A DNA stretch of 64,000 bases from Ginglymostoma cirratum (lineage: Eukaryota): NCBI GenBank assembly GCA_024137785.1, contig JAHRHZ010000013.1, forward strand, positions 8,706,139 through 8,770,138, in the 5' to 3' direction. The notes under the pieces were generated by a model. It saw only the letters and a list, made by a program, of their open reading frames with translations. It searched no databases and had not been told where the DNA came from. The translations under genes were made by a program, and so were the position numbers. Position 1 is the stretch's first letter; each line of letters starts with the position of its first letter. Positions 1,701 to 59,900 of the stretch are shown in pieces.

Positions 1701-2887
1701 TTTAAAAATTCTTAAATATTTTAGTTTTTATGAAATAACCTTTACATGAGGGGGCGACTGCAGACATTGAACAATGACATTAGAGCTTTTTGGTAAATTA
1801 ATGTTAACCAAATTATAGAATGCCAATAAATTAGGCACATTGTAATCATCATGTCTCCATACGCAGTAATAGGGAGCACTCCTGCTTCATCACAGTTCCC
1901 AAATGCTTGGAGACCAAGGTCGGATTCATAGAAAGGACAGGACTTTTTTAGATGGCGAACTTCTTTCTGTGCAGATTGACTAAACAAATGTCAAATTACC
2001 AAGCTGATACATTGTTTTTTACCCCTTGTTCTTGTTCAAGTTACTTGATGTGTTTCTTAGGTGTCTGTATTTGAATTTGTGATTTTGTATTAAATGTTTC
2101 AACTATAATCCATCAAGTGGTGGTTTAAGGAACATTATAAAAAACACAAAGTATAATCACTCAAAGCACAAGAATAGAAAGAAAGAAGAAATGTACAATT
2201 ATTACAAGTTGAGTAATCCATAAATTAAATGCTACCACCCATTCCCTCTGCTCACTGACCAATAAAATAAATAATTTTCAAAGCGGATTCTGTCCTATTT
2301 AATTCCTAGAATACATTGTTCACTCAGATTTACCTGATTTAGCACTTTCATCAAATCTATCATCCATGTAATCCTTAATCTTTTAGGTTGTAGCGTGGAT
2401 CTATTTTATTCGCAATGTTTTCTGACATATATTAGGACAATTAATTATTACTAAACAATTAAGTGAGTTAATGAATGCAAAATTGACCTCCAAACTGTCT
2501 CTGACGCTGGCGCTGCAATGCCCCAATGTCTAAAAATGGTTTATAGTTTGATACTGAACAGCCCATTCAGCACTCTACTGGGAAGGTTGTCAGTGCTTGT
2601 GAGTTGTGTGTTTAGAGAACTGTCAGGTTAGATTGCAACTGACTCATCTAATACACATTTCTAAAACTTTGACCATTCAAGTACGGTGAATAGCTATGAT
2701 AATCACTCACAGATGAAAAATAATCAGCTTCATGAAGGAAGGCAGTGGTAAACTGCTTTTCTGAACAGCTATGATTCATGGGGTTACCACAATAGTGTTA
2801 GGATAGGAGTTCCAAGATTTTGACCCAGCTACTCTCATAACTTGGTTAAACATAAGATTCCTTTCACAAAACCACATTAACTCTTCC

Positions 2888-2990
2888 AGTCAGTTCTGAG
2901 GAAGGGTCACCAGACCCGAAACGTTATCTCTGTTTTCTCCCTCACAGATGCTGCCAGACTTGCTGAGCTTTTCCAGCAACTTTGTTTTTG
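2888..2990 (+). mobile_element. 103-bp PLE family A micro-insert headed by a hammerhead motif
   Basis: Perfect 10-bp TSD taactcttcc (2878-2887 and 2991-3000); sequence matches the 3' terminal region of the PLE at 15408-16858. Confidence 0.85.
2891..2932 (+). ncRNA. Minimal type I hammerhead ribozyme motif (family A)
   Basis: CTGAGGA-A-GGGTC(acca)GACCC-GAAA-CGTTA: CUGANGA core, stem II, GAAA box and short palindromic stem III (AACGTT). Confidence 0.75.
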
Positions 2991-3676
2991 TAACTCTTCC
3001 TGATCCCACTCATGATTTTCTAAGTATTCACTACCGCCCTCTTAATTATAGCTTCTAGCAATTTCCCTATGACGTGTTAGGTTACCTGGCCTATAGATTC
3101 TTTCTTTCCTCCTCCTTTTGGTCTTGAATAAAGGTATTACATTTTCTATTTTCCGATTATCTCTCTAATGAGAGAGCAGTCCTATGGTCCACGAGGTTAC
3201 TGAATGATGCTCATTTCGCATTACAGGTCTGGAATTGTCTGCTGTCTAGTTGACTATAGAACATATTGCTGTAAGAAATTGCCCTGAATACACTGTATGC
3301 ACTCATTTGCTCCAATACATTTGCCAATCTGATTCACCCAAAAGACATGTAGATTATAGTTGCTCATTATTATTGTGATAGCTATCTTACACCACATGTA
3401 TTTCTTATTGCATACTTCGTAATTAGTAGTGGTAGGCCTATAAATTATTTCCACAATTGACTCTTATTTTTCTTATTTCATATCACTACCCAACAGATTC
3501 TATATCCCCTTCAAGCCAAGGGTTCCTTTCATGACTGTACTAATAATTTCATTAAAAACAGAGGTAGCATATCTTTTTTTCTAACTTCCTGTCTTTTTTG
3601 AAATGTCAAATGTCTCAACATTCAGACCACAGGCTTGATCTCTTTGCAACCATGCCTTCCTAGTGGCCTTCAGATC

Positions 3677-4544
3677 TGTGATAATATGAACTTCAGCACT
3701 TTAATAACTGATCATGGATTGCAAGAATTAAAGATAAACTGCTACATACGGAAAGAAGCAGCAATAACTCTGCCAGGAATAAGCTTCTAAGGGGCAAGAA
3801 TAAACACAGGAATAGAAAATAATTAACCATTCCAAATTTTGGCAAAGATCTGTAGCTCGGGTTGTGGGTGAGGTTGTTGATTTGCTTGCCGAACTGGCTT
3901 GTTCACGTTCATCCAGCTCAGTGGGCAAGTCAACAACTTCAGTAATTAGCCATGTTTGGGAAAAGAAGGATGCGAAGCTCCAGGAATAAAACTGTTTTCA
4001 CATCTGCTTGATAACTGGCTGTTGTATGTCACAAGGATATCAAATTGTCCCGCAGAAAAATTAAAGGAGTTAATTGCAGAAAAGCTGCATCTTCAAACAG
4101 GTAGTTAATGCCAAATATAACAAGGAACAGAGAAGTTACTTCTGAAAAGAAGGTAAGCTGCAGACTTGATATTGGCTACTCCTCTGAAACTAACAGGATA
4201 AAAGAATCTTCAATGTATCACATCATAAACCTGAAGGATGAAAATCTGTATAAGAATCCAACACCAGAACCCTTCATTAGCAGAACTTCGAAGAACAACA
4301 CTGCGCAAGGATCAAACCCTGGATACTTCCAGAGACAGACACTGTTGGTTGTAATTGTAGCTACGTTCGACTATTAATCGGGTAATAGTCAAGTTGAATT
4401 GGGAGGCTTAACTTGTTTACTTATGGAGTTTTATTTTGGTTGCTACCTGCAATAAAGTTTAAATCGTTGCTTCAATATTTCATTGTCTGTGAGATTTCTT
4501 TATAAGTATCTAAATTAAAGGTAACTTGTGGTGATTTACCCACA
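3677..4544 (+). mobile_element. Probable solo LTR
   Basis: TGTG...CACA termini, 4-bp direct repeat gatc (3673-3676 and 4545-4548), AATAAA at 4451; interrupts a decayed CR1-like segment. Confidence 0.5.
3831..3942. mobile_element. 112-bp palindromic PLE family C micro-insert
   Basis: Arms gaggttgttgatttgcttgccgaactgg / ccagctcagtgggcaagtcaacaacttc; 11-bp TSD taattaaccat/taattagccat (3820-3830, 3943-3953); same terminus as the PLE at 38412. Confidence 0.7.
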
Positions 4545-5150: not shown

Positions 5151-5161
5151 ACCACACTCTC

Positions 5162-5690
5162 TCAGAGATAGTAAGAACTGCCGATGCTAGAGTCAGAGAC
5201 AGTACAGTGCAGAGCTGGGGGAACACAGCAGGCCAGGCAGCACCAGAGGAGCAGGAAAGTTAACGTTTCGGGTTGGGACCCTTCTTCAGAAATGAGGGAG
5301 AGGGAAGGGAGCTCTGAAATAAATAGAGAGAGGAGGGGTGGAGGTGGGGAAGGTAGGTGGGATGGTGATAGGTGAGTGCAGGTAGGGAGTGGTGGGGATT
5401 GGTCAGTGGGATGGGTGGGGCGGATAGGTGAGAGAGAAGATGGACAGATTGTGTCAGGTCGAGGAGGTGGGGATAAGAGGAAGGGTTGGTCATGATATGA
5501 AGCCAGGGGTGGGGAGATTTTGAAACTGGTAAAGTCCATATTTAGGTCATTGGGTTGTAGGCTCCTGAGGTGGAATATGAGGTGCTGCTCCTCCAGTTTG
5601 TGGGTGGCACCATTGTGACACAGGAGGAGGCCCAGGATGGACATGTCACCCAGGGAGTGGGAGTGGGAGTTGAAATGGTTCTCAACCAGT
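5162..5690 (-). mobile_element. PLE family B inverted 3' arm (GIY-YIG C-terminus plus pLTR with HHR)
   Basis: NHFNSHSHSLGDMSILGLLLCHNGATHKLEEQHLIFHLRSLQP, then a pyrimidine-rich UTR and the family B terminus. Confidence 0.9.
5257..5293 (-). ncRNA. Minimal hammerhead ribozyme motif (family B)
   Basis: Minus strand reads CTGAAGA-A-GGGT(ccca)ACCC-GAAA-CGTTA. Confidence 0.75.
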
Positions 5691-5691
5691 C

Positions 5692-6390
5692 TCCCGAACA
5701 TCCCAGATGTCCTCTTACTTCAAGGACTGCAACTTGCTGCCTTTGGTGGTCAAAAGTGCTCTCGACCGCATCTCTTGCGTTTCCCACACCTCTGCCGTCA
5801 CGTCCCCCTCTCCCAACAAAAACAAAGACAGAATCCCCCATGTCCTGACATATCGCCCCATTAAACTCCATATCCAACATATCATTCTCCACCACTTCCT
5901 TCACCCACAATTTGACCCCACAACCAAAGATATATTTCCCTCCCCACCCCTATCTGCCTTCGATATGAACCGCTGTCTCAGCAACTCCTTCATCTGCTCC
6001 ACACTCCCCACGAGCCCCACCACCGCCAGCACCTTTCCCTGCAACCATAGGAAGTGCTACACCTGCCTATACCCCTCACCTCCATTCAAGGCACCAAACA
6101 AATCTTTCACATCAGACAGAGATTCACCTGCACATCTGTCAGTTTGGTCTATTGCATCCGCTGCTCCCAATGTGGCCTCCTTTACACCGGTGAGACCAAG
6201 CGGAGGCTCGGAGATTGCTTTGTTGAGCACCTGCACTCTGTTTGCGACAAACAACAACACCTTCCGGTTGCGAACCATTTCAACTCCACCTCCCATTCGC
6301 TAGCTGACTTGTCCATCCTAGGCCTCCTTCAGTGTCACAATGATGCCACCTGGAAACTGGAGGAACAGCACCTCGTATTCCGCCTCAGGA
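5692..6390 (+). mobile_element. PLE fragment: RT C-terminal linker plus GIY-YIG endonuclease (frameshifted)
   Basis: DRIPHVLTYRP, PCNHRKCYTC, LVYCIRCSQCGLLYTGETKRRLGDCFVEHL...NHFN...LEEQHL (VY-x-YxG-ET GIY-YIG signature). Confidence 0.92.
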
Positions 6391-6499: not shown

Positions 6500-8240
6500 A
6501 ATTAAAGCTTGTTTATCTAAACATGAAAAGCATTCACAATTACATAGAAGGCCTAACAGCACAAATACAGATATACAGTTTAGATCCAATGGTGGTTATA
6601 GAGACATAGTTACAAAATGAACAAAGTTTGGGAGGTAAACATTCCAAGATCTTGATTGACAAGACCAGGAAGTCGAATTGGTATGGGTGGAAATTAGGAT
6701 CAAAAGAGGACATAAAATGCTGATGGGAGTAGATTATTGGCACCCTAACAGTAGTTGTACCATTGGAGAGAACATTAAGCAAGAAAATATTGGGGCATGT
6801 AACAAGGAAATGTAATAATTGTAGAGGACTTTAATCATCTAATAAATGGACAAACCAAACTGGTAAAAGTAGCTTGTGAGCTAAATTTTAGAATGCTTCA
6901 GCAACAGTCTGTCGGAACAATATGTTATATAAATAGCAAGGATCGAGTTATTTTCGGCTAGTACAGGCAAATAAATGGATGTAATTTAGAGTATCACAGT
7001 AAACGTTCAGCAGGAAAAAATAGCATAATTGAAATATATATTGATTTTTAAAGCGACGTAGGGGTGGCATGGTGGCTCACTGCGCCAGGGACCTTAGGTT
7101 CGATTCCACCCTGGGGTGACTGTCTGTGTGGAGTTTGCACATTCTCCCTATGTCTACATGGGTTTCCTCTGGGTGCTCCAGTTTTCTATTCAGCCCCCAA
7201 AGGTGTGCAGATTAGGTGGATTTGCCATGAAAAATATCCTGTAGTGTCCAGGGATGTGCATGCTAGGTGGATTAGCCATGGGAAATGCTGGATTACAGGG
7301 ATAGGATAGGGATGTGGGCCTGGGGGGGGGGATACTCTTTGGAGGGTCAGTGCGGACTCAATGAGCTAAATGGCCTACTTCCACACTATAGGGATTCCAC
7401 AATTTCTAAGATAACATAGACCTAAACAAAAAACAGTATTTGAGGAGGTTACTAGCTAAGTTTGGTTGGTTAAGTAGACTAAAGGGTGTGGTGATTCAAC
7501 TCAACTGCACATGTTGCTAAATTGATGAGTCCGGTGATCACAGATGGGACACTGCCAATCTTTGCTGCAGTTCCATGGCAACACCCTGACCAATCAGAAT
7601 CTACCTGTCTGGTCTGACAATTAATGTAACCAGATAACTGTTCCTTCTGCAACTCCATGCCAATGATGGCCCAACCTATCCAGCGCGCTCTTCTCATGCT
7701 CTGTAAGTTGTGTTCCTTTTAACAAGTCAGTTTCTTGCATCCTAGTGAATGCAAGACGATAAGCTTTGACTCTTGTTTCCTTTTCGCAATGTTTAAGCTC
7801 TGTAGTACCAAACAGTTGTTAAAGAGAGTGTTTGAAAAGCATTATCACAAAGTAAAATAAGATACCTGAGGATTGGGGTTGTATTAGAAAGACTCAGCAA
7901 AAGTTTATCAGAAAGTAGGTAAAAAAAGAGGAAATAAAGGGAAAAAAAATGAGAATCCCAGAGCATAACAAGCCCAGAACCTAAAAGCAGTTTGTAAAAG
8001 TTTTTATAGTATATTATTCGAAGAATTAGTGAAAGTCAGGGACAAGAGAAGTATCACAACAAATGAGAGAATGATAGACACACTGAACAGATATTTGGCA
8101 CTTGTCTCTGCAAGTGGATACAAATTACATACCAGAAATAAAGGGCAACGACAGGGCCAATAAGGATGAAGAATTCAATATAATTAATAGCGGCAGAGAA
8201 TAAGTATTATGGAAATTTAAGTGATGAAAAAATAACAATG
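6500..8240 (+). mobile_element. Old CR1 LINE remnant (AP endonuclease region onward), interrupted by an HE1 SINE
   Basis: Degenerate GVxYxPP and xxGDFN-like motifs near 6725-6835; boundaries approximate. Confidence 0.45.
7061..7408 (+). mobile_element. HE1-type V-SINE
   Basis: tRNA-like head (ggtggctc...ggttcgattcc), V-domain tgtgtggagtttgcacattctcc...gggtttcctc, CR1-like tail. Confidence 0.9.
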
Positions 8241-12974: not shown

Positions 12975-13330
12975 AAAGACTTGAAGTTGTGACTATTGAA
13001 AGTCTCAAAGTATTTACAATTAAATGAAGTTTGAAGGGTAGTCACTGTTGTGATGTAGGAAGTGGGACAGTCAATACACGAACAGCAATCTCCCACAAAC
13101 AGCAAAGTGATAATGGCCAGATGATCTGCTTTGGTTGATGAATATGGAGAATTCCCCTGCTGTTCTTCACAGAGTGCCATATGATCTTTTACATCTAGCA
13201 GAACAAACAGATGGAATCCCAGTTTAACATCTTGAACAAAAGACAACAGTGCAGCTCTCCATTAATACTTAAAGTAGGATTTGAATATGGTCAGAGGCAA
13301 GAGCACTCCCGACTGAGCCACAGCTGATAC
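12975..13330 (-). mobile_element. Ancient Deu-domain tRNA SINE (SacSINE1/AmnSINE1-like)
   Basis: Minus strand: head gtatcagctgtggctcagtcgg, Deu core gatgttaaactggg...gatgtaaaagatcatatggcact...cagcaggggaattctcc, tail gctgtttgtgggagattgctg. Confidence 0.7.
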
Positions 13331-15407
13331 AGATGTTGCATTATGGCTGGATCCACAAGTACTGCAATAAAACTGAACATTTTCAGATCATAATCTTTAA
13401 GTCTACATAAAACCCTGTTTCGGTTTTGATCTATCTCCCTCCATGCTTCCTGGCAATGTAGCAGGCTGCCAATACACCAAGCAGCTCTGCGTGCATGTCC
13501 ATTAGCATTCTTCCATGTGCTGGCTCATCGGAGTTCTCAACTGCAGCAGAACTCAACTTTAACTTCACCCTCCATGGAACTGACATTTATGTCATCATAT
13601 TTCTTTGGATGGCTGTAGCTGTACATGTCCACTGACTCACCATGTGCTGATCATGTCTCTGTACTGCCCTGTACGTTCGGCATAGTATCAGTATCTGAGC
13701 TGTAAACGTGAAAATCAGTATTGCTTCATCAAGTTTGTTTCTGTTCTTGCACCCTTCATCGTGAAACCACATTGACTAGGCATGCAATAGGTCCTGGATA
13801 TGTGAAGTATAAATGCAGCAGAAGTTGGGTAGAAAGCACAAGATATATGGCCACACCATCAGCAGCTGAAACCCCATGTCAAATGGGTGAGAGTGAAGTG
13901 AGATTACATAAGAGACGTAGGACAGAAACATACCCACACCTTGATTATTCTCAGCAGTCTGTTACAATGACCTTAGTCACTACCATGCCAATTTGCAGCT
14001 GTGACTTCTCCAATAATGTTTTCCAACCTGAAAATGTTTGGTCCTATTGCAGTACTTGTGGATCTAACTATAATGCAACATCTGTACCAGCTGTGGCTCA
14101 GTTGGTAGTGATCTTGCCTTTGATCATGTTTAAATCTCTCTTTAAGCTTAGTAGAAAAAGGTGTGCCTTTGTCCCCGTGATTTTCTGCTGCTCCCTCCCA
14201 TTATGCACCACTTTGTCCTGCAAGAAAGAGGGACGTATGTCAGAGAATGTTCTGCAATATGCACCTATGATATACTGTCACAGCTGAATAGCTAAATGTA
14301 AAAACAATTTTCTGTTTAAGATGTTTTAAGTATTGTAGTTATTGTCATCATTGACAGCTGATTCTATGCTGCATCTGTACAGTGACCTTCTGAGACAGGT
14401 GGCCACCGCAATAAGAAAAGTATGTCGACTACTTCTCAAGTCTTCTCATCAAAAACAATTGCTGGAGATGTAACTGCTTGTCCAAGGAAGACTGGTAGAT
14501 ACTTTTTAATCTTGCTGATGTACAGACTGACACACCTGTATGCAGAGTTAAAGAGACTAATGGTAGTCTGACTGTTACTTGTGGTGTTATTTGTTGTTTT
14601 GTCAGTTCTGTTGGAGGGTCACCTTAATCTTGGCTTTCAGCCTGTTGAAATTGGAAAACTATCCAATGAGTCAACACTCAATTGTGACTCCTTGTGGCAA
14701 TTGGTTGAATGAGTTCCATGAATAAGCTGAGGTAGACAGTAAAGAGAGTTGACACATACATACAGTCTTCATTGACACTCACAAAGTTATATACCATTTA
14801 ACCCAATTCTTAAAATATCTCCTCGTCACTTTATGGAAGTAATTTCTGATACGGATAAAAAGGTTGTTTTCAAAGAATGTTCTGTTCCATTTTCAGTGTT
14901 AATGTCCAATCTCACTCAAACTCATTCACTTACAGATTTAAAAATGGATCCAAATGTTTAAGTGCAAATGTAGCAAACATCAGTTGGATACCTCATAATA
15001 TACCGCATGATTCTCAATTGTATGCATCTCTTCATTGTAAACATAAATCCAGCCGATCTCTAAATTGAATTAAATTATATATTTTATGAATTGCTTTTAG
15101 TGAAAGAACACATTGCACAATTTGCATTTCATCTTTGAAGATTACTCTACTTAATCAATCTGACATTAGTCATTACATGTGTTTTTAGTGAAGTGTTGAT
15201 TCCAGGAGATGAAAGAATTTTAATACATCAATACAAAACACACGATAACTCTCGGAACAACAGTACTTGATCTGCACAAAAAGCATCAATTATTGATATT
15301 TGTGGCACTCTCTTTTCCAGCAATAATGTAAATATCCACTTAAGAATACATTTCATATGGCTGGGAAAGGCAGTATTAGAGAGAATGTCCACTGAAATTA
15401 CCACGGA

Positions 15408-16858
15408 CTGTTTCTCTGATACATCGATGATATCATTGGTGCTGCTTCCCTCTTCCATCCAGAATTGGAAAACTTCATCAATTTTGCCTCCAATTTCCAC
15501 CCTGCCATCACGTTCACCTGGTCTATCTCTGCCTCCCCCCTTCCCTTCCTCGACTTTTCTATTTCCATTTCTGGGGATAGATTGGTCACTAATATCCACT
15601 ACAAACTCACTGACTCCCACAGCTGCCTGAACTATACATCCTCACACCCCACTTCCTGTAAAGACTCCGTCCAATTCTCTCAGTTCCTCCATCTCCATCA
15701 TATATGTTCAGCTGAGGCCAACTTCGATAAGGAGGCCTCCGAAATGTCCACCTTCTTCCTCAACCGAGGATCTCCCAGCCCTGTGGTCGACAGGGCCCTT
15801 AACTGACCCATCTCTAGCACTTCCACCCTCACCCCTTCTCTTCCCTCCCACAACAGTGATAGGGTTCCCCTTGTCCTCACCTATCATCTCATCAGCATCC
15901 ACATCCAGAAGATCATCAGGCGCCATTTCTGCCACCTCCAGCAAGATGCCACCACCAGACACATATTCCCCTCCCCTCCCTTGTCCGCCTTCCGCAAGGG
16001 CCATTCCCTCCAGAACACCCTGGTCCACATTTCCTTCACCCCCAACACCCCCCCACAGCCCTACAGCACTTTCCCCTGTAACCGGCGAAGGTGCAACACC
16101 TGCTCATTTACCTCCTTCCTCCCCAGTGTCCAAGGGCCCAAAAATACCTTCCAGGTGAAGCAACACTTTGCCTGCACTTTCCAGAACCTAGTCTACTGCA
16201 TTCGCTGCTCACAATGTGATCTCCTCCACATTGGGGAAACGAAGCGTAGACTAGGTGACTGCTTCGCAGAACATCTATGTTCTGCTCGCAAAAAAGACCC
16301 TGAACTACCTGTAACTTGCCACTTTAACGCACCACCCTGTTCCCTGACCAACTTGTCTGTCTCTGGCTTGCTGCAGTGTTTCAGTGAACCTCAACGCAAG
16401 CTGGAACAACACCTCATTTTCTGCTTGGGTACCCTGTGGCCCTCCAGACTCAATATTGAGTTTAGGGCCTAAATTCTCCCATGTCCCAGCCTCCTACCCC
16501 ACACCAGGCCTTGTTACCACATAGCCTGCCATTACACACTACCTGCTATTAGTCACTAATAGTCCCCGTTAACAACTATTCACCCTTCAGCCTGATCATT
16601 ATCAACTCTATATCTATCCAACTGCTCTTCTCTCTCTTTGGGCTCTATCCTATCATTTACTCCCTATCCCACCCCCCTCCCCTTTTTTCTGCATATAAAC
16701 TGACGTTTTCCCAGCCACCATCAGTTCTGAGGAAGGGTCCCTGGAGCCGAATCGTTAATTCTGTTTTCTCCTTCGCAGATGCTGCCAGATCTGCTGAGCT
16801 TTTCCAGCAACTTTGATTTTGCTCCTGATTTACAGCGTCCACAGTTCTTTTGTTTTTT
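15408..16858 (+). mobile_element. 5'-truncated PLE family A: RT catalytic end, GIY-YIG and pLTR
   Basis: YIDDIIGAA catalytic motif, LPFLD, KLTDSHSCLNYTSSHP, PCNRRRCNTC, LVYCIRCSQCDLLHIGETKRRL...HFN; UTR with HHR motif; frameshifts and stops present. Confidence 0.93.
16722..16763 (+). ncRNA. Degenerate hammerhead motif (family A)
   Basis: CTGAGGA-A-GGGTCC(ct)GGAGCC-GAAT-CGTTA; the GAAA box is mutated. Confidence 0.55.
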
Positions 16859-16971
16859 AATAAAGGGTAAATTGTCTGATCATTTAAAAAAGTGGAGTAT
16901 TTTCAAACCTTTTCAATACTTCTGGTAAAATTGTCTGAAATATATCTTCTGACACTTTCACAATTTAGCTG

Positions 16972-17392: not shown

Positions 17393-17700
17393 ACAGCTGG
17401 TGGCTCAGTGGGTAGTACTGCTGCCTCACAGCCCCAGGGACCCGGGTGACTGTCTGTGTAGAGTTTGCACATTCTCCCTATATCTGCTTGGGTTTCCTCC
17501 GGGTGCTCTGGTTTCCTCCCATAGTCCAAAGATGTGCAGGCTAGGTGGATCGGCCATGCTAAATTGCCCATATGGTTCAGCGATGTGTAGATTAGTTGGG
17601 TTATGGGGGGATGGGTCTGGGTGAGATGCTCTGAAGGTCGGTGTGGACTTGCTGGGCTGAAGGACCTGTTTCCACACTGTAGGGATTCTATGGTCTATGA
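17393..17700 (+). mobile_element. HE1-type V-SINE
   Basis: Same head, V-domain and tail as 7061 and 49707; ends agggattctatggtctatga. Confidence 0.9.
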
Positions 17701-17999
17701 ACTAAGTTTACAAGACCTTGAAGGATCAACTAGAGGCCAGCACTAAAACCATATTTTGGAAAAGTAAAACTGTGCTGAATGTGGAGCTATGCAAGATTTT
17801 TGTTAAACAATGACATGAAGTAATATGGTTAAATATAGAGTTAGATCACAGAATGTCAAAGAATGGTAAACAGGTTTGAGTGATTAAAGTGATTTCCTTT
17901 TCCTATATTTCTACCAGTATACCCTTCCATCTCCTGAACCTGCTTCAGTTGGACTATGACCGATGCACACCTTAAACTATTTACCTGTGTTTACTTCAC

Positions 18000-18305: not shown

Positions 18306-18529
18306 TTTCTAGAACTCAAATCTACCCATATCATTCTCGAGTGTTCCAGTATCCATAGCCTGTTGAGTGAAGGGTTCCAGATTTCTACAATCTAAAGTAA
18401 TTGTGATACATACTTAGAGTCATGCAGGCAAATTAAATCAGCAGGTATGTGGGATTAAAGTAATTGAAGAGTTCAGCACAATTGGGGGATGCAGCTGCAA
18501 ATCTATCAACTATCAGAAATGAGAAAATA

Positions 18530-18643
18530 GATTAGGTGAGGTATAGGGGGATGGGTCTGGGTGGGATGCCCTGAGGGTCAGCGTGGACTTGTTGGGCAGA
18601 AGTGTCTGGTTCCACACTGTAGGGATACTATGATCTTCTATGA
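18530..18643 (+). mobile_element. HE1 SINE 3' fragment
   Basis: gggatgggtctgggtggg...ttccacactgtagggatactatga. Confidence 0.75.
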
Positions 18644-18811
18644 TATCCTGCAAATCATCTTAAAACTGGAAAATAAGCTTGCACATTTTGCCTCTGAAAA
18701 TCAATTTCCAGATATGTTAGGTTTCCTGGAGTATATTGCCATCCTCAAAACATTCTGACAGACTGAATTCCTGCCCTTTGTACAAGAACCTGATTTTCAT
18801 CTCAAAGGAAT

Positions 18812-36100: not shown

Positions 36101-36564
36101 CCATGCCTCTCCCCTCCCCCAACTGCATCCCAAAACCAGCCCAGCTCATCTCCACCTCCCTAACCTGTTTTTCCTCTCACCTATCCCCTCCTCCCACCTC
36201 AAGCCCCACCCCCATCTCCTATCTACTAACATCATCCCGCCCCCTTGACCTGTCCATCCTCCCTGGACTGACCTATCTTCTCCCTACCCCCCCACCTACA
36301 CTCACCTTTACTGGCTCCATCCCCGCCTCTTCGACTTGTCTGCCTCCTCTCCACCTATCCTCTCCTCTATCCATCCTCTATCCGCCTCCCCCTCTCTCCC
36401 TATTTATTTCAGATCCCTCTTCCCCTCCCCCATTTCTGATGAAGGGTCTAGGCCCGAAACGTCAAGCTTTCCTGCTCCTTTGATGCTGCTTGACCTGCTG
36501 TGTTCATCCAGCCCCACGCCTTGTTATCTCGGATTCTCCAGCATCTGCAGTACCTTTTATCTCT
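36101..36564 (+). mobile_element. PLE family B pLTR / 3' UTR fragment
   Basis: Colinear with the minus-strand arm at 5162-5500; ends tctgcagtaccttttatctct. Confidence 0.88.
36432..36467 (+). ncRNA. Hammerhead ribozyme motif with canonical core (family B)
   Basis: CTGATGA-A-GGGTC(ta)GGCCC-GAAA-C-GTC; GUC triplet at 36461-36463; stem I ttt/aag is weak. Confidence 0.8.
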
Positions 36565-44520: not shown

Positions 44521-45261
44521 AGAAGATGGTTGTGTTTGCAAAGTACGTCTTTAAATTTAGGGTAAAATGCAGGGGCATATGTAATCTGTTCTGAAGTCTG
44601 CCTGACAGAAAGTCTTGTTTGATTGTTAGCCATCAAAAGGGAAGCTTAGGTTGTTTCGCTGGGAAGAGTGAACAAGGAATTTATTTCTGAATACAATGGC
44701 AGAAAACTAAGTGTCTTTAAAGTTTCATAAATTTGAGAATGTTAGGTTGTAAACAGCTTTAGATGAAAGAAAGTTGCACTCTTAAGGAGAGTGAATTTAC
44801 ATTTCTACCTCGATACATGCCTGTGTGATTCATGTCACCATGGGAAGGGTTCAGAAAAAGCCACTAAAAATTATGTCACAGGTTCTTCCTACAATATCAC
44901 TGAATATTATAGGCAGCATTTTTTAATCTATTTGGAATGAGGAAACAGTGAACAGGTACAGGCCATAGAAGTCTCTAAGATTTTTTATGCAGGCTGGAAG
45001 CTTGTGCTTGGATTAAAAGTACCAGTCTTTTTTGGAGAGTCAAAACATGTCTTGGAAACTCAGCTGGCTTGAGTTAGATGGAGAGTATCCAGGAAAGGAA
45101 ACTTCCCTGTGAAAGACAGTTTGAAAATTGCTGTGAAATCAGGCTGTGAAATGAAAAGAACAGGAATAAACCATCAAAAACTAAGAATCACTTTGGATTA
45201 ATGCTTTGGGAAAATGGAATGACCACCTAAAGAACAGAGTAAAATGTACACATGAAGTGTT

Positions 45262-45340
45262 ACAGAGATAGTAGAAACTGCCGATGCTGGAGAATCTGAG
45301 ATAACACGGTGTGGAGCTGGATGAACACAGCAGGCCAAGC
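45262..45340 (-). mobile_element. 79-bp PLE family B terminal insert
   Basis: 6-bp TSD agtgtt (45256-45261, 45341-45346); family B long terminus. Confidence 0.8.
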
Positions 45341-45349
45341 AGTGTTGTT

Positions 45350-48523: not shown

Positions 48524-48654
48524 ACTGCTGCATTCTGCATTGTAATTGTTGTCCTCTCAGAGCTGCAACTGCTTCTCAATTTCCCTCAGGATAGAAGACA
48601 AAACTGAAGAGGAAAGCTCTTGTGGTGCTGCACCCTGGACTTCATCTTCTTCAT

Positions 48655-48860
48655 AAAAGCTGAAAGAACTGCGGATGCTGTAAATCAGGAACAAAAACAA
48701 AGTTGCTGGAAAAGCTCAGCAGGTCTGGCAAGAAAAAGAAAACAAAAATCAGAGTTAATGTTTCGGGTCCGGTGACCCTTCTTCAGAATCGTTAACTCTG
48801 ATTTTTTCTTCACAGAATGCTGTCAGACCTGCTGAGCTTTTCCAGCAACTTCTGTTTTTG
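48655..48860. mobile_element. 206-bp palindromic PLE family A insert centred on a hammerhead
   Basis: Perfect 14-bp TSD ttcatcttcttcat (48641-48654, 48861-48874); head-to-head arms; HHR on - strand at 48750-48788 (CTGAAGA-A-GGGTC accg GACCC-GAAA-CATTA). Confidence 0.9.
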
Positions 48861-49706
48861 TTCATCTTCTTCATCTGCAGTTTCCACTTTCCTGTCAGAG
48901 ACAAGTTGTTGTAGAGAGTTTTCAAAGTGGGACTCAAGCAGAAAGCGCTTCACGACAAAGTCTGCGAAATGATCACATGACGCCAGTGTGGAGACCCTTT
49001 CAGCACTAACATTGCGTGTATTCAGGACAAAGTCCACGCAACAATCATGTGCTGTCGACTCATACTCCTCCACACACTGATGGAATCGCGTTATAGCCAA
49101 CACAGCAATAGCCATAGTGTTTTGGCAAGAGCATTCCCTATCCGTCAGTCACATTAAAGCCAATTCACATTGCTGGAACACGCATTATAGCAGAACCAAC
49201 TATACTATAATGCGGATAAAGAATTTTCCAGTTTCACAGTTTACTTGACCATTGAAAACTTGTCAGATGTTACTAGTGACAACCTGGCAGACATTTTTAA
49301 TGTCTCACTGGACTTTCAAAACAAAGCTGTATCATTACTTAGCGTACTAATAAACATATATAACTTATGATACAGCATTTTATTATGAAATTTGATGTAA
49401 ATCCTTGCATGAGACTTTTTTTATGTAGCCAGACAACAAATAGAATTGACAGGATGTTTGTACCATTCTGATGGATGATTGCATTCACAAATGATGGTTG
49501 GGTTTTGGATGGGAAACAAATGCTTCCAGATCATGATAGTAATGGTCCACGTGATCAGCCTCTTGACCAGAAAATGATAGGTGCAGTTGGTGTTCTGTTT
49601 TTGCAATGGTCAATGTTATTTTTATGGAGCATGGAGGGGCAACCATATTCTTCACAATGCATCACATGGCCAAATGACCTTCCGGGGACCTCCTTGTCTT
49701 GATCGT

Positions 49707-50027
49707 GGGCGGCATGGTGGCTCGGTGGTTAGCACTGCTGCCTCACAGCACCAGGGACCTGGGTTCGATTCCACCCTCAGGCGACTGTCTGTGTGGAGTT
49801 TGCACATTCTCCCTGTGTCTGGGTGGGTTTCTTCCGGTTTCCTCCCACAGTCCAAAGATGTGCAGGCTAGGTGGACTGGCCACGCTAAATTGCCCGTAGC
49901 GTTCAGGGATGTGTAGGTTAGGTGGGTTATAGCGGGGTGGATCTGGGTGGGATGCTTTGAGGTTCGGTGTGGACTGGTTGGGCCAAAGGGCCTGTTTCCA
50001 CACTGTAGGGATTCTATGATTCTATGA
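49707..50027 (+). mobile_element. HE1-type V-SINE (near full length)
   Basis: gggcggcatggtggctcggtggttagcactgctgcctcacagc...V-domain...gattctatgattctatga. Confidence 0.93.
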
Positions 50028-50154
50028 AGAAGTGATACTGTGTGCATCATGCCTGACTAATGCCCCCATTCAATACTCCACAACCAGTTGGGTCTTAAAA
50101 TGACAATCGTAGCCATGTACACCACAGGACCATAATTTTCCTTCTAAAAGAGCC

Positions 50155-52520: not shown

Positions 52521-52682
52521 TTTATTTTGTAACAGAATGCATTGTGTCAGTTTCAGCTGATTAGAACCAGTCCTCAAACTGCAATACCAGTACAGCAATA
52601 TGCCCCTCATCACATGTACACTTCTTAGGTTCGGAGATTAAGAATAGGTACAGGAATAGACTACTTCGCTCTTGGCCTTATA

Positions 52683-52780
52683 AGGGGATGGGTCTGGGTA
52701 GAATGCTCTGAGGGTGGGTATGGACTTGTTGGGCCAAAGGGCCTGTTTCTACACTGTAGGGATTCTATCATTCTATGATC
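52683..52780 (+). mobile_element. HE1 SINE 3' fragment
   Basis: gggatgggtctggg...cactgtagggattctatc. Confidence 0.75.
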
Positions 52781-53785
52781 TACCATTCAATTAGATTATA
52801 TCTAATTGATCATCTACCTCAATGTCATTTCCTGTTCCATCTCCATATTCCTCAATGTCAATAATCCTCGGAAAGCTATCAGTTGCTGTCATGAACATGC
52901 TCAATGATTACATTTCCACTTTCCACTGGGTAGACAATTCCAAAGTTTCACTGTCTTCTAAATGAAGAAATTTCTCCTTTTCACAGTCTTAAGTGATCTA
53001 CTCTTTATCCTGGGATTATGTCCTTTAAGTGGCATAAGAAATAGGAGCAAAAATAGGACATTCATGCCCTTAAGCCTGCCCTGCCATTCTGTAAGATCAT
53101 GGCTGATCTGTCCCAGGTCGTAACTCATCTTTCATGCCAACTCATCATAGCTTTAAACTCTTCGACATAACAAAAAAAAATCTATATTCCTTCTCATTAA
53201 ATACTTTCAGTTTTAGCCTGACCAGCCAGGCGAAACATCTTATCCACTCCCACCCCATCCTACTTTATAAGAGTAGTTGGTTAAAAGAGGTCAGACCTCA
53301 CTCTTAAAAAATCTGGAGAATACAGGTACACTGTCCTTATTAAACAATTCTGTCGCAATATTGGATTAATCTTGTGAACCTCCATTGCACTCCCCCTGTG
53401 GTAAGTACATTCCTCCTTAGATAAAGGGACCAAAACAGTACACAATACTGCACTCAGGTGAATTCTTAACACTTGTAGCAAGACATCTTTACTCTTGTAC
53501 TCAATTCTCTCCAATCAAGACTAACATACCACTTATCATCTTAATTGCTTACTGTACCTGCATGCTAACTTTTCATGACTTATGAACAAGGACATCCAGG
53601 TCCCTTTGGGCACCTGCACTTTCCAATGGCTCACCATTTAAGAAATAGTTTGCCTTTTTGCTTCATTTCTACCAAATTGAATAACTTCACGATTATTCAC
53701 ATTATAATCCAATGCTATCTTCTAGACTTATTCACTTAATTGATGAAGTAGACTCCTTACATCCTCTCACAATGTACATTCTCAG
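52780..53785 (-). mobile_element. CR1 fragments
   Basis: Reverse-complement CR1 tails and IEYKSKDVLLQ motif. Confidence 0.7.
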
Positions 53786-53786
53786 T

Positions 53787-54432
53787 CAGAGATAAAATGT
53801 ACTGCAGATGCTGGAGAATCCGAGATAACAAGGTGTGGGGCTGGATGAACACAGCAGGCCAAGCAGCATCATAGGAGCAGGAAAGCTTGATGTTTCGGGC
53901 CTAGACCAGGGTCTAGGCCCGAAAAGTCCAGCTTTCATTGCTGACTCATACTGCTTNNNNNNNNNNNNNNNNNNNNNNNNNNNNNNNNNNNNNNNNNNNN
54001 NNNNNNNNNNNNNNNNNNNNNNNNNNNNNNNNNNNNNNNNNNNNNNNNNNNNNNNNNNNNNNNNNNNNNNNNNNNNNNNNNNNNNNNNNNNNNNNNNNNN
54101 NNNNNNNNNNNNNNNNNNNNNNNNNNNNNNNNNNNNNNNNNNNNNNNNNNNNNNNNNNNNNNNNNNNNNNNNNNNNNNNNNNNNNNNNNNNNNNNNNNNN
54201 NNNNNNNNNNNNNNNNNNNNNNNNNNNNNNNNNNNNNNNNNNNNNNNNNNNNNNNNNNNNNNNNNNNNNNNNNNNNNNNNNNNNNNNNNNNNNNNNNNNN
54301 NNNNNNNNNNNNNNNNNNNNNNNNNNNNNNNNNNNNNNNNNNNNNNNNNNNNNNNNCATAGGAGCAGGAAAAGTTTTCCTGCTCCTATGATGCTGCTTGA
54401 CCTGCTGTGTTCATCCAGCCCCATGCTTGTTA
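53787..54432. mobile_element. Palindromic PLE family B sequence flanking the assembly gap
   Basis: tttcgggcctagacc/ggtctaggcccgaaa inversion at HHR stem II before the gap; cataggagcaggaaa/tttcctgctcctatg palindrome after it. Confidence 0.7.
53957..54356. other. Assembly gap (400 N)
   Basis: Run of N. Confidence 1.
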
Positions 54433-55136
54433 CCTTGTTGTAGTGTGCAAGCTTGTCCTGAAAGAAAGAAGCAAGTGTGTCCTGGTTAAAATAGCAAAAC
54501 GTTTTGATGATTTGTGTACCAGTGTAAAATAGCATTGCTGGTGTGTGAAAAGTGGTTGATGTAAGAGGAGGTAAAGGAAGTAACAGTGAGTAGGATAATT
54601 GATACAGGTTGAAAATACGACAGCATGAAAAATTGTTTTTGTTGGTGATTGCTGGTCATTGAGGGAGTAAAAGGTCAAAAATGCTGCAGCAGTTGTTGAT
54701 GTTGAATTAAGCAAAGAGTGATGAATAATACCAGTTAGGAAGCCTACCCTAGCTTAGCTGGTGAGGTCAGTTCACTTGCAGCCTGATCTGGGACAATGTT
54801 TCTGACACACCTGCACTTAACCACCCAGCCCTCTAATGATGCTTGTCTTGATAATTCTTTGCTATCTGTTGAACAGAACATTTTTTCCCTATCAACCTCA
54901 CGCTGAAACCTTCAGTGCAGTCTAAAACTAGAGGGGCTCTTACAGCATTTACTGTGTCTGGCATTGAGCAGTGTGCTTTGATAACAGTTGTGTATCTCTT
55001 TTTTAACAGGTGAAGAGTACTTTTAAAAGTCATCAGAAACATGAAAAATTTATGCCCCTAATTCAGGCAGTTACCATTGAAGAATGTGAATGGTGTTGAT
55101 GGTCTGTCCTTTTTACATAATTAATGAGGGACCAAG

Positions 55137-55470
55137 TGAGCACGGTGGCGCTTGTGGTTAGCACTGCTGCCTCTCAGTGCCAGGGAGCCGGGTTTGATTC
55201 CACCCTTGGGCAACTGTCTGTGTGGAGTTTGCACATTCTCTCCATATCTGCGTAGGTTTCCTCCCATAGTCCGGAGGTATGTAGGCTAGGTGGATTGCCC
55301 ATGCTAAATTGCCCATAGTGTCCAGGGTTGCGCAGATTAGGTGGATTAGCATTGGGAAATATAGGGTTACAGTGATGGGATGGGTCTGGCTGGGATGCTG
55401 TTCGCCGGGTCAGTGCGGACTCAATGGTCCGAATGGCCTGCTTCCACATTGTAAGGATTCTATGATTCTA
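55137..55470 (+). mobile_element. HE1-type V-SINE
   Basis: gcacggtggcg...gttagcactgctgcctc, V-domain, gattctatgattcta tail. Confidence 0.9.
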
Positions 55471-56949
55471 AATCGAAGGCCTTCTTTGCCTCCCTGTGAT
55501 CAAACTTGCATTCAGAGTGATATATGACACTGCATGAAAACACACTTCTATTTCATTTATTTATTGTAAAAAGCATTGTTTGCATAGCGTGAGGGCTCTA
55601 AGGCGCTCTGTTGTGAAGTAGTAGCATTTGGATTTGTGTTTATTCTTTTCTTGATCTGGTTTTTCATTGAGTTTTGATCAGACAAAAGGGATATTTAGCT
55701 GAAGAAATTGTTATCATTATTTCCAAGATGAGGTTAAATTTCAATGAACTGAAGTGGAAACGCATAGTAGTGTAGTTTGACTAGAAAATGTATATATCCT
55801 GCATCCAGTTGCAGTCAGCACAGCTTTATTAAAATTATTTGACTGCAGACATTAAAATATTAGGCAAAAGGGATAATGTAAATAAGGATTGTTTTTTATT
55901 TAGATCATTCTCTTCTCCAAATAGGGCAATCTTTTTCTAAATATCTCTGAGTAATAAATGTTATCATTTGGTAAGGACTGAAGCTATGGACAGCAATGTA
56001 TGTTAATTTACTTTATTCATAACAGCTGCTAGGTATTGGTGAGCAGCAGCAAAAACTAATGAAATTAAAGAATTAGGAAATAAACAGTTACAATGAGGAT
56101 GAGTACAATTATTAAATAAGATGAAATCAACAGATATAAAGATGAGAGAAAGTTTGGACAAAGAGAAAAGAACACAAAATAAAATGAGAAAAACTTTAAG
56201 ATTTGACACCTTTGAAGTCTCCTAAATCAATCTATGATCTAAAGCTGTAAGACTCTGCACTTAGTTACTCATTTTTTGGCAAAAGTACTTGATTAATATA
56301 TTAATGAAAGGCTACTAGACATAACTCTCTGTGGTGATCTTGAAGTTTTAGCTCGTATTTTAAACCAAGACTGCTACCTGCTCATTCAGCTACTGGTCAA
56401 TTTAAGGGTGTCTGCAGATATACTGCATGTCCCTAATCACTGGATCAGGTTCTTAAACACCTTATGTACCTGTCACACTCCTTTATTTACATCTGTACAT
56501 TGTAGGTTCTCAAAAACAGCTCTGAAAGTTCTAAACCCCTCCCTTCACATGTTTATTCTAGGCTGGTGTCCTCATGCTTCAGAACTGTGAGCAGTTATAT
56601 CATCAGGATTTACATAAATATCATTGCATCCTATCTCCTCATAAGTTGCTTTCACTTGGTCGACATTATTGCAATAATTTGGTCTCTATTACTTACATAA
56701 TCCTTGTAATCATTAAAACATAATTAAAACATCATTATTAACATAATTGTAACTATTTTCACCATCTCTATCTCATCTCCCACCCCATCCTGTCCCTCCC
56801 ACCTCCCCCAATTTTTAATCTCAAAGATCAACATGATCTGGAATTCTGACTAGACATTCCAATCTGATTCACTTGTGTTCAACACCAGGGAGATGGTATT
56901 GCATCATGTCTGGAATAACTACATCGCCTTATTTACCTGTTCCTCCTGA

Positions 56950-59900
56950 AAGTACCTTCAGGCATTCTGACAGTATAAGATTGTGATTGATCAATTTCTC
57001 AGACGATGATGGATTCTCACTTCCTATTTCTTAATAAGACCTTCTGTTCTGACTTTGAGGTTGACAGAGTGTTTGCCCTATGTCTAGAGCTGAACCAGCT
57101 CTGATGCTTTATTTGCTGTGGCTATTCTCTACTTAGTTTCCCTTCTTGTTGTCTTGAGAGATTATCTTTGTCTTAAAATTGTTTTCTAAAACTGTTTTGA
57201 ACATCTGTTTTACACTTCTGTATCTATTTTAACCTTCTTTCCATCAACAATTTAGCAGGGGTGAGTCCATTGTTTGAGCTAATTCCCAGTCTAGATTTTA
57301 TGCATCAGTGACTTCACAGTCTGGACTTCTCATTCCACCCCTTTGTTCAGCAAGGATGGAGTGCTGAACCTATCACCTGGTTGGTGTCTGCCTCCAAAGT
57401 AAACTTTCTGAAATCCTCATTCATGAACTGAGGTCCATTTTTTGATCCTCATTCAGGGAAAACATGTGTCACAAAGATCCTTTTCATTGCTTTGATCACT
57501 GAGTTTGCTGTGGTTGAGTGAAGTCTTGCCACTCCAACCCATCCTGAATAATAGTGAACTAGAACTAAATATATCTTTTAAAATCAAACAAATCTGTTGC
57601 AAGACTTTCCCATAGCTTTCCAGGAATGTTGAAGAATTCATTGTTCCCGTAGCATTTGGATGCATGGCACATGATTTGCATGACAAAATGCAATCCTGTA
57701 TGTCTATTGACATGCATGGCCACCATACTATGTATTGTTAACACAGTGTGGAGCTGGAGGAACACAGCAGGCCAGACAGCATCAGAGGAGCAGGAAAGCT
57801 GACATTTCGGGATGGGTCCTGACCCGAAACGTCAGCTTTCCTGCTCCTCTGGTGCTGCCTGGCCTGCTGTGTTCCTTCAGCTCCACATGGTTTTATCTCT
57901 GACTCCAGCATTGGCAGTTCTTACTGTACTACTTATTGTGCTGTTGTTACAGAGATGTCTCCCCTGAAGTTTCTGTGGGATTTCTCTTCACATGGATTTC
58001 GATATAACCATTTAATGGTTGTGCACTAATAAATCTTCCTCTATTGCCATGTGTTGTTTTGGTTGTGGCACCTTTTCACTTGATCTGCTGGACTACATTT
58101 CAATCAGCCCTGTAGACAGAGTTGTCTCACTTTTGTGTTCTCCTTGTTAAATCTTTGAGCTGCACAAATTTGTCTGAGTTTGCCTGAGCAGCGTTACATT
58201 GTTTGTTACAGCCGTAGAACAAGTCTTAACATCTTTTACAACATTAGGATATTTTACTGCTTGGTCCAATGCTGCTCTCAGGAGTATATTTGCCATATTT
58301 GTGCCTTGCCTGGAAGATGGACTATTCCATACACGTATCTCATAAGCCCAAACTTGAACATTTGTATGCTGCAAAACATTATTGTGATCTCTTTCAATCC
58401 TAATAACAAGGGTTAGCGAGGGCTTGTGGTTTGTCTTGACCTGGAATTTCAGTCCCATGTGGTAGTCTGCGAAACTTTATCATTCCCATGTAATTAATAA
58501 TGCTTCCTTCACTTTGTTTGTGTACCTCTGTTCAGCTTCTGTCAAAGCTCTTGATGTAAAATAGATTGGTATTAATGTTTCATCAGTTTGTACTTGAATA
58601 AAGAATACACCTAGGCCTGTGGATGATACCTGTATGGCTACCATACTGAATAAACCTTAGCAGTAATGTGCTAAAACATCAGTGGAAAGTATCCTATCTT
58701 TAATCCTTTTACAAAGTGTGGTTTGTTTCTGACTGCAGTGTCAAAGCCAACCATTTTTCAAAAATAATTCTAAGGGTTGAGCAAGACTTGTTAAGTTGGG
58801 GATAAATGTTCCCACTTGATTTACTATATGGTAGAATTGCTTTACGTCATTTATACACTTTGATGCTAGAGGTGTACTGGCTGTCCTCTTTCAGTCCACT
58901 GAGATGTATTGTTCATGCAGAACTTGTCCTAAAAATGTATAAATATATATAAATGCCATTCTAGAGAATTGATGTTTCTCATTTAGTGTAAGTGTCCTGT
59001 AATGCCTATAGTACCTTTCTGACAATCTGGTCATGTTCCTGTTCTGTTTTCCCATTTCCCATGACATTATATGGCAGTTAGTCTCCTGTTTCTCTTCAAG
59101 GGTTTTAGATGTTACCCTTTGGATATCTTGGCAGTGAGGAGATTGTGACCCAAAAGCTGGAACAAATGTAGTTAACAAACTTGAATCTTGGCCGAAGGAT
59201 ACCTGCCAGAACCCACTATTTGGATCCAGTTTTGTAAAAAAAAAACTTGCCTCTGTGGTGAAATGTGTACCATTTTTGGATTTGGTTTTCAAGATAGAAG
59301 CAGTTGGTTCTTGGTTATTTCTGTGAAAAGTTTTGTTTTTTTAAAGAGAAAGGTCAGAGGGGCCTTCTGGAACAGTGATTTAAATCCAACATGTTGCTCG
59401 AGAGCACATAACAGTGATATTTATGCAGTTGGTTTTATCATCAGCTGGGAAGATAACCTTTCCCAATGTTTTAATTGATGAAATAGGATGGATTTCCCTC
59501 CTTACTCTTTTTATTTAATTGACTGCGATCCACACACAATGTTAGTTCTCCACTTGTCTTGGAAATAACTACCAGCCCAAAGCACTGTGGTGTCAGTTAT
59601 ATCAATGGTGATGTGATGCTGCTTTTGATCATGTCATCTAACTCAATTTTTACTTTCCCAAAGGATGATAAAGCTTCCAGGGTGTACAAAAGCAGATGTG
59701 TTTAGCAGTATCCTACAGAATAACTCGTTTCAGTTTGTCTGAACCTTTAAATAATTTTGGAAATTCATGCTGAAGTTCTCTCCCATCTTCATCCTGAAAG
59801 TATTGTATCCACTCTCTCGAAGAGACCTGAATGCATTTCTATTCAGCAATGATGTATTCTGATTCCTCATGTATAATATTTCATTGACATTTTGTCCTGT

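Follow-up and report, generated by a model that had tools for sequence, protein, structure and literature searches.

Penelope-like elements (PLEs) that carry an endonuclease (EN+ PLEs) insert together with an inverted, 5'-truncated copy, and their tail of 30-40 bp is often found at one end only (Craig et al. 2021, PMC8557442). Here we describe a window, i.e. the whole stretch of 64,000 nucleotides analyzed from Ginglymostoma cirratum (assembly GCA_024137785.1, contig JAHRHZ010000013.1, positions 8,706,139 to 8,770,138 of the forward strand), which holds many short inserts built from the pseudo-long terminal repeats (pLTRs) of such elements. These inserts are very probably dead-on-arrival integration products of EN+ PLEs, families A and B being of the Neptune type and family C a separate family. 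Their 5' ends cluster beside a hammerhead ribozyme motif, and it is this clustering, together with the one-tailed palindromes that some of them form, that is examined below.

The closest described systems are represented here by excerpts of the cited works, and statements about them apply to those excerpts. In the Poseidon element of Anolis carolinensis (Frangieh et al. 2024, PMC11167929), two adjacent internal start sites for reverse transcriptase (RT), located 3' of the hammerhead, bound the tail and define tailed and untailed ends, as we see here; both strands are nicked and extended, a dimer is predicted, and product length is set by the RNA 5' end, hammerhead cleavage being unnecessary. 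Families A and B differ in belonging to another clade, and the excerpted Poseidon text ties neither genomic 5' ends to the transcript start nor one-tailed palindromes to double priming. Compared with the Neptune and Nematis elements of Craig et al. (PMC8557442), many of the shark inserts consist of one or two pLTR ends only (80-210 bp) with clustered 5' ends, and such a size class is not described in the passages of that paper. The Penelope elements of Adineta vaga (Arkhipova et al. 2013, PMC3846280) share an inverted pLTR at one end, an optional 31-bp tail, a palindromic head-to-head junction, target-site duplications (TSDs) of 8-10 bp, solo pLTRs, and a TATA box with an initiator in the pLTR, but the Adineta examples mostly enclose an open reading frame (ORF); their palindromes were explained by self-priming on an antisense template and the solos by recombination or deletion. 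A 34-bp repeat and inverted forms are also known from Drosophila (Schostak et al., PMC2377424). With metazoan PLE hammerheads (Cervera and de la Pena 2014, PMC4209133) the inserts have in common a minimal type I core without helix III; those hammerheads were mostly single and dispersed and were ascribed to truncated PLEs, with opposite-strand pairs 100-700 bp apart, and in the portions covered, unlike here, termini, TSDs and breakpoints were not analyzed. Finally, non-LTR retrozymes (PMC7229834; 10.64898/2026.07.22.740005) are likewise non-coding, hammerhead-associated, pLTR-related and found in vertebrates with PLEs; they form head-to-tail tandem units, each with a complete hammerhead, as well as circular RNAs, and at least two units with complete hammerheads are taken as the defining criterion (10.64898/2026.07.22.740005).

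Two termini, duplicated target sites and one-tailed palindromes

All counts come from the 64 kb window alone, which is repeat-rich, has about 41% G+C and contains a single assembly gap (400 N, 53957-54356). An earlier note on this DNA had listed nine short inserts in families A, B and C, and self-comparison, alignments and profile searches recovered all nine, approximately where it had placed them (Table 1; inserts are named by family and first position, and positions within arms are counted from the first C of the CUGAnGA hammerhead core). The same comparisons added B36076-36566, a long inverted pair (5159-5687/5692-6390), A15411-16860 and 54357-54436, and profile searches of the window found no further short copies besides these elements at E <0.3. 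Far shorter A and B copies would have been detected, since fragments of a left-out copy, planted with 5-10% extra divergence, were recovered 21/21 down to 34-36 nt when untailed and 21/21 down to 60-64 nt when tailed, with 9-21 of 21 recovered at 40-44 nt; arms down to ~35-45 nt are thus detectable by this control.

Every intact 3' end (16/16) stops at one of two termini ~35-40 nt apart, 7 being untailed and 9 tailed, although the tail of family C is represented by one copy only. The four palindromes and the two-terminus rule of the earlier note were both borne out: four head-to-head junctions occur in the window, and each of the three complete palindromes joins one tailed arm to one untailed arm. 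A head-to-head layout recurs, with long arms, in the pair at 5159-6390. An optional 30-40 bp tail, an inverted 5'-truncated partner and a TSD of variable length are all present in the A and B inserts, and a minimal hammerhead lies in the pLTR, as in EN+ PLEs (5/6 matches to the hammerhead pattern fall in these elements). This insert architecture is already published for PLEs, and a description of the inserts as minimal Penelope integration products is supported, and already in the literature.

TSDs were scored in 11 elements by comparing flanks, with 8 nt of slack per end, against 600 random intervals. Five exceeded chance: A2888 (10 bp), A48655 (14 bp) and C38412 (13 bp), each at P=0.002, C3831 (11 bp with 1 mismatch, P=0.007) and B57739 (13 bp with 2 mismatches, P=0.037). 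The 6-bp duplications of B39899 and B45262 are singly compatible with chance (P=0.098 each), so that the statement that seven of the nine inserts have TSDs of 6-14 bp holds at a score of >=6 in the flank test, with five beyond chance and the two 6-mers marginal. A flank match at B36076 (P=0.098) hinges on an uncertain 5' end and was excluded from the count; no TSD was found in the flank test at A34222 or B53787 (P=0.70), nor at A15411, and searches at A15411, B36076, B5159, B53787 and A34222 returned 4-8 nt matches only, which we took as chance. The duplication at C38412 is genuine, as a CR1-like paralog near 61.8 kb has the target motif in single copy. The seven TSDs together are 68% A+T compared with 59% for the window, in the same direction as the AT preference reported for Penelope nucleases.

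The earlier note had offered, as another view, a non-autonomous class amplifying as units, either MITE-like (miniature inverted-repeat transposable element) hairpins or retrozyme-like, mobilized in trans by Penelope proteins. The palindromes do keep both termini and fold as very stable long hairpins (z -11.5, -17.2 and -4.4), B39899 and the left arm of B53787 are 96% identical with ends at +12 and +10, pLTRs can act in trans (PMC3846280), and PLE-derived retrozymes occur in vertebrates, including the one chondrichthyan sampled (10.64898/2026.07.22.740005). However, the recurrence of identical palindromic junctions proposed in that note as a check was run within the window and gave 4/4 unique junctions, a small sample with low power in which only two of the four palindromes share a family, and these differ in subfamily. 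A complete core is absent from 6/9 inserts, the short inserts are without a TATA-like box, and TSD length varies from 6 to 14 bp; no tandem hammerhead arrays occur in the window, where Tandem Repeats Finder reported 3 arrays with periods of 3-16, none in these elements. Such a class, unsupported in the window on these grounds, is very improbable. By definition MITE TSDs are of one length, that of a DNA transposase superfamily, and filing the inserts as MITEs was rejected because palindrome TSDs are 11, 13 and 14 bp and those of single arms 6-13 bp. Filing as retrozymes was likewise rejected, with no tandem units and a complete hammerhead in 3/9 inserts only: unlike retrozymes, the inserts are single or head-to-head and mostly without a complete core. 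Minimal hammerheads need a dimer partner (PMC4209133, PMC6765202), which a head-to-head pair, with its cores on opposite strands, cannot provide.

Clustered 5' ends and a tentative run-off origin

The 14 arms of families A and B, from 10 events, have 5' ends at -8, -5, -2, +6, +8, +10, +12, +16, +23, +51, -360, -398, -1110 and -1316, with none between -16 and -360. Some of these ends were judged: local alignment gave -9 (A2888), -16 (A34222) and +14 (left arm of B57739), and the long ends come from protein alignment. In a search for an empty-site paralog the flanks of A34222 could not be aligned across the site, so that its 5' end is bracketed between -5 and -16. Left out of the breakpoint statistics were 54371 (+29, gap-adjacent) and family C (+43, +52 and ~-187), for which there is no good reference. 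The earlier note had put breakpoints at or inside the hammerhead, and the six that it quoted do map there, at about -8, -5, +12, -2/+23, +10/+8 and +14/+6; as a general statement it omits B45262 (+51), the C3831 arms (+43 and +52, downstream of the hammerhead), C38412 (263 bp, including the ORF end) and the longer copies B36076-36566, 5159-5687/5692-6390 and A15411-16860.

The 5' ends are clustered at -8 to +23 of the core, a pattern that is suggestive, not proven. A fixed window from -16 to +30 contains 6/10 events (p <=0.004 over eight exponential-mixture nulls), and a log-uniform null gives p 0.0002-0.002 (0.0002 with a sliding window). Ordinary random 5' truncation by an enzyme of low processivity, with the clustering as small-sample noise, would agree with the description of PLEs as heavily 5'-truncated (PMC8557442, PMC8969392) and with sliding-window p values of 0.03-0.5, obtained with one arm per event and exponential means of 20-45 nt. 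We consider it distinctly unlikely, given that the fixed-window result holds for all eight means, that ends are missing from -16 to -360, and that a single A/B arm ends downstream of +29 although planted ones are detectable. Moreover, among the short arms (5 tailed and 5 untailed, not all of them independent), tail status goes with a difference in length (one-sided Mann-Whitney p=0.028) and with none in the position of the 5' end (p=0.69), which favors a stop that is fixed in position.

What might fix it is suggested by the sequence upstream. In all three A and B copies that reach far enough, an initiator-like A at -4 is preceded by a TATA-like hexamer, at -33, -35 or -36. Both boxes line up when A is aligned with B, within an untranslated region (UTR) that is C/T-rich and poorly conserved, and a hexamer of this kind occurs 28-33 nt upstream of 0.9% of the initiator-like sites in the window. 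A transcription start is accordingly predicted, from motifs, at -4. A similar pair can be seen by eye in the Anolis template (AT-rich run at ~-44, initiator-like A at ~-14; PMC11167929), a rotifer pLTR has a TATA-initiator pair (PMC3846280), and in Drosophila Penelope is transcribed from the upstream pLTR (PMC2377424, PMC6765202).

Our best reading, put forward tentatively as an account whose chances fall somewhat short of even, is that RT starts internally in the 5' pLTR, runs off at the mRNA end and is primed at both nicks, yielding one-tailed palindromes. The GIY-YIG nuclease of PLEs is the nicking enzyme. Encoded by the element, it would make staggered nicks 6-14 bp apart, producing the TSDs that are observed. 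RT would then start within the RNA at either of two sites ~35-40 nt apart, giving untailed or tailed 3' ends, as suggested by the two termini seen here and the two start sites seen in vitro for Anolis Poseidon. If the mRNA starts from the promoter of the upstream pLTR, a few bases before the hammerhead, RT launched from start sites in the 5' pLTR would meet the RNA 5' end after ~100 or 135 nt and leave tiny arms, and RT launched from the 3' pLTR copy would leave ordinary, longer 5'-truncated arms. Where both nicks prime, one per start site, the two cDNAs would be joined head to head with little or no microhomology, and the product would be a palindrome with exactly one tail; two-nick priming would put both 3' ends outward and the 5' ends in the center, between the TSDs, which is the layout observed. 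In this scheme the hammerhead would be a passenger that marks the transcript start, rather than an agent of cleavage that determines the breakpoint. Among the arm ends, those of A (-8, -5 and -2) fit run-off at -4 closely, and the junction at 53907/53908 is blunt, which fold-back self-priming does not predict, although A48655 does fit fold-back. More doubtful, though possible, is the wider proposal that this short-product pathway (5' pLTR start sites, run-off at the capped end, and a dimeric ribonucleoprotein priming at both nicks, with a subunit per start site) dominates PLE insertions numerically; the bolder version, in which some palindromes re-amplify as units, seems to us highly unlikely. 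The run-off and double-priming scheme was not found stated in searches of an open-access library, outside which several key older papers lie.

A number of observations weigh against this reading. One tail per palindrome has a chance probability of ~0.12 for 3/3, or ~0.06 for 4/4 if 53787/54375 is included (hand calculation), so that the one-tail rule leans on the literature more than on the window. Identity between palindrome arms (0.84, 0.90 and 0.92) is compared with up to 0.89, 0.96 and 0.98 to other copies; arms being no closer to their partner than to other copies, a single RNA template is unproven, and arm-to-arm identity was set aside as an uninformative test of it. The transcription start is a motif prediction in which three homologous copies amount to about two observations, the initiator-like motif overlaps hammerhead stem I, which possibly accounts for its conservation, and the Drosophila Penelope promoter is TATA-less (PMC2377424). 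Under the steepest exponential nulls the sliding-window p rises to 0.21 (25 nt) and 0.50 (40 nt), and the arms of a palindrome are not independent observations. The two arms of C3831 come no nearer to the core than 43-52 nt on its downstream side, and the B ends fall 10-20 nt short of -4, inside stem II, where they would equally fit a structural stall. The junction at 54371, omitted from the statistics, coincides with the predicted cleavage site: its first base, at +29, is also that of the 3' cleavage product, and the junction falls within a self-complementary hexamer.

Two of these points bear on the earlier proposal that hammerhead folding or cleavage sets the stop. For folding, stem II, or a protein bound there, would stall RT or trigger a switch regardless of the transcript 5' end: 6/10 short arms have their end between +6 and +23, either inside stem II or at its base, this stem forms in 4/6 folded copies, and across it, in the hairpin of A48655, bases of the junction are paired with the GAAA box. 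Yet the stem is only 4-5 bp long, shuffled sequences fold as well as the isolated hammerhead regions (z -0.95 to +0.82), three A arms pass through to -2, -5 and -8 as do four long arms, and in vitro the Anolis RT products lengthen with the RNA 5' end (PMC11167929). A stall of this kind is possible, but we hold it unlikely. The cleavage half of the proposal fared worse. Were self-cleavage to make the RNA 5' end, cDNA would run off at +31 (A) or +29 (B); the 54371 junction fits, and the Anolis hammerhead does cleave with protein help (PMC11167929), but 9/10 other short A/B arms extend 5' of the site, holding 8-39 nt upstream of it, and none ends at it. The 54371 junction itself abuts the 400-N gap, and deletion of the tip of the 53787 hairpin between hexamer copies explains it equally well: the piece at 54357-54436 is either a separate insert or the distal part of the 53787 element, the hairpin having lost its tip, and, without a TSD and with 92% arm identity, both origins still fit. 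With catalytic mutants the Anolis insertion band is unchanged, none of the RNA-seq reads ends at the cleavage site, and uncleaved RNA is the dominant template (PMC11167929). Run-off at the cleavage site thus has very little chance of being correct.

Recombination has also to be weighed, since it would likewise place 5' ends at the start of the transcript. A full insertion (inverted pLTR, direct pLTR, ORF, pLTR) that lost its interior by recombination between the direct pLTRs would leave a TSD-flanked arm or palindrome, and in Adineta both the parent structure, with 9-10 bp TSDs, and solos ascribed to recombination or deletion are known (PMC3846280). We find this route improbable: no full-length parent occurs in the 64 kb, yet short forms make up 6/10 A/B events, and recombination would need to act on ~100 bp repeats, presumably with low efficiency. 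Returning to the run-off reading, the short-product scheme would, if true, account at once for inverted pLTRs, for tails on one side only and for minimal hammerheads dispersed in their thousands.

Families, hammerheads and neighboring sequence

Families A and B cross-match in profile searches with E down to 1e-12, their alignment spanning the endonuclease end through the tail, and C has no cross-match. By sequence comparison A and B are related Neptune-type subfamilies and C alone is separate, so that the three distinct families of the earlier note stand for C and not for A and B. The closest protein relative of the long element is P0001, an uncharacterized zebra shark protein (54% identity). 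P0001 (45% over 510 columns) and P0002 both run colinear with the remnant at 15.4-16.5 kb. P0002 matches RVT_1 (E 1e-6) and P0001 matches GIY-YIG (E 0.002) in Pfam, both slightly below curated cut-offs, and none of eight window ORF fragments had an RT or GIY-YIG match in Pfam, so that the RT and endonuclease identity depends on P0001 and P0002. A search of solved structures with the RT fragment gave no match below E 1.5. A and B have the RT followed by a C-terminal GIY-YIG with cysteines between the boxes, as do EN+ Neptune and Nematis PLEs; a zinc-finger-like CX2-5CxxC linker between RT and endonuclease was read in ORFs 15807-16472 and 5674-6303, and such a linker marks Neptune and Nematis elements (PMC8557442). 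Aligned with window 36076-36465, the C-terminus of P0001 continues across the family B 3' UTR and into the hammerhead region, and P0001 is probably a Penelope-like copy annotated as a gene.

Full proteins had been attributed to the copies at 5692 and 15408, but both are broken fragments. At 15.4 kb the copy opens immediately ahead of the YIDD motif; 9 stops interrupt its P0001-aligned region, an alignment extending through the 3' UTR, one of them within the ORF remnant and another immediately ahead of YIDD. The 5692 piece corresponds, in two frames, to residues 139-372 of P0001 only, and the 5692-6390 fragment retains the GIY-YIG motif and a CX4CxxC linker. Judged by their reading frames, the two copies are remnants and not sources of full protein, and leave family C unaccounted for. 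Of C just a short, frameshifted ORF end is present; a homolog search with its one open frame returned 0/18 candidates. C may belong to the Penelope/Poseidon clade, which it resembles.

The minimal hammerhead pattern has 6 matches in the window against a shuffle mean of 0.49 (max 2; 100 shuffles), and both catalytic boxes are kept in 3/9 listed inserts (2896, 34230 and 48786). An Rfam scan gave no hammerhead match among 16 weak matches. Further along the family A arm, ~20 nt past the predicted cleavage site, a pyrimidine run, CAG and then ATG (2930-2953 and homologous copies) resemble a splice acceptor ahead of a start codon; family B does not have this run in the same form. In both A and B the tail has its complement in a segment ~50 nt 3' of the core (16758-16860 and homologous tails), a segment that could enclose the short terminus; conserved pairing was dropped as a candidate, 0 of 12 predicted pairs having a compensatory change.

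Table 1. Penelope-derived elements and associated features of the window (positions in window coordinates; 5' ends relative to the hammerhead core)
Feature	Position	Strand	Details	TSD
A single arm, untailed	2888-2990	+	complete minimal hammerhead, core start 2896; 5' end ~-8	10 bp, 2878-2887 / 2991-3000
C head-to-head palindrome	3831-3942		left arm tailed, right untailed; without hammerhead core	11 bp, 1 mismatch, 3820-3830 / 3943-3953
B long inverted arm, tailed	5159-5687	-	endonuclease C-terminus, 3' UTR, hammerhead core at 5289; TATA-like box at -36, initiator-like A at -4	
Right arm of long head-to-head insertion with 5159-5687	5692-6390	+	Neptune-type ORF fragment; 3' end gone; short filler at junction 5687-5692	
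A long 5'-truncated Neptune-type copy	15405-16860	+	from just before YIDD through thumb, linker, GIY-YIG and 3' UTR to tailed pLTR; interrupted by stops	none detected
TATA-like hexamer (-33) and initiator-like A (-4, 16723)	16694-16727	+	directly 5' of hammerhead core; predicted transcription start	
A single arm, untailed	34225-34323	+	core at 34230; 5' end -5 by exact match, as far as -16 by local alignment	none
B 5'-truncated copy, ~490 bp, tailed	36076-36566	+	core at 36436; TATA-like box at -35, initiator-like A at -4	
C copy, 263 bp, untailed	38412-38674	-	ORF end and decayed hammerhead (core at 38487); host sequence CR1-like RT	13 bp, 38399-38411 / 38675-38687
B single arm, tailed	39899-40014	-	5' end +12, within stem II	candidate, 6 bp, 39893-39898 / 40015-40020
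B single arm, tailed	45262-45340	-	5' end +51; without hammerhead	candidate, 6 bp, 45256-45261 / 45341-45346
A head-to-head palindrome	48655-48860		tailed left arm retaining full hammerhead (5' end -2), untailed right arm (+23); junction microhomology 3 nt	14 bp, 48641-48654 / 48861-48874
B palindrome	53787-53956		left arm tailed (+10), right arm (+8) decaying into assembly gap; blunt junction, no microhomology	
B untailed arm 3' of gap with short inverted stub	54357-54436		junction +29 in self-complementary hexamer	
B palindrome	57739-57926		left arm untailed (+14 to +18), right tailed (+6); junction microhomology ~1 nt	13 bp, 2 mismatches, 57726-57738 / 57927-57939

Some palindromes match microRNA precursor families below threshold in Rfam (best E 0.0006), at 57767-57868 and 48703-48849, and such hairpins could be miscalled as microRNAs or feed small-RNA silencing. 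The only gap of the window coincides with the B53787 palindrome, which runs into it, with degraded sequence 5' of the gap and an inverted stub 3' of it; hairpins of this kind may break short-read assemblies and so be undercounted.

The surrounding sequence is rich in other repeats. An inverted repeat of 119 bp with 85% identity (13268-13386 / 14028-14146), unrelated to the Penelope termini, encloses ~640 bp and is possibly an old DNA transposon or MITE. A 195-amino-acid ORF at 39265-39852 matches Pfam ALKBH8_N (E 1e-10) and stops just short of insert B39899; we take it to resemble the C-terminal part of the ORF of a long interspersed element (LINE). A family of ~300 bp resembling short interspersed elements (SINEs) has seven copies or fragments (7070-7399, 17398-17704, 18528-18644, 35023-35334, 49712-50028, 52678-52782 and 55140-55470), in the window in which ARAGORN found no tRNA. 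CR1-like LINE fragments lie at 28.2-32.0, 37.9-38.8, 40.2-40.9 and 61.4-62.2 kb.

Significance for Penelope-like elements

As it stands, the window is a shark example of published Penelope insertion anatomy, and the lead that remains is the suggestive clustering of 5' ends beside the predicted transcription start. How inverted pLTRs and one-sided tails form was named an open question (PMC8557442), answered only in part, in its excerpted text, by the Poseidon work (PMC11167929). The palindromes call for caution, as they mimic microRNA hairpins and may break assemblies. With nine inserts in the window, or about one per 6-7 kb, a repeat-rich genome at such density would, if run-off with double priming is true, let the origin of inverted pLTRs and one-sided tails be tested by counting, and the dispersed minimal hammerheads would then be passengers.

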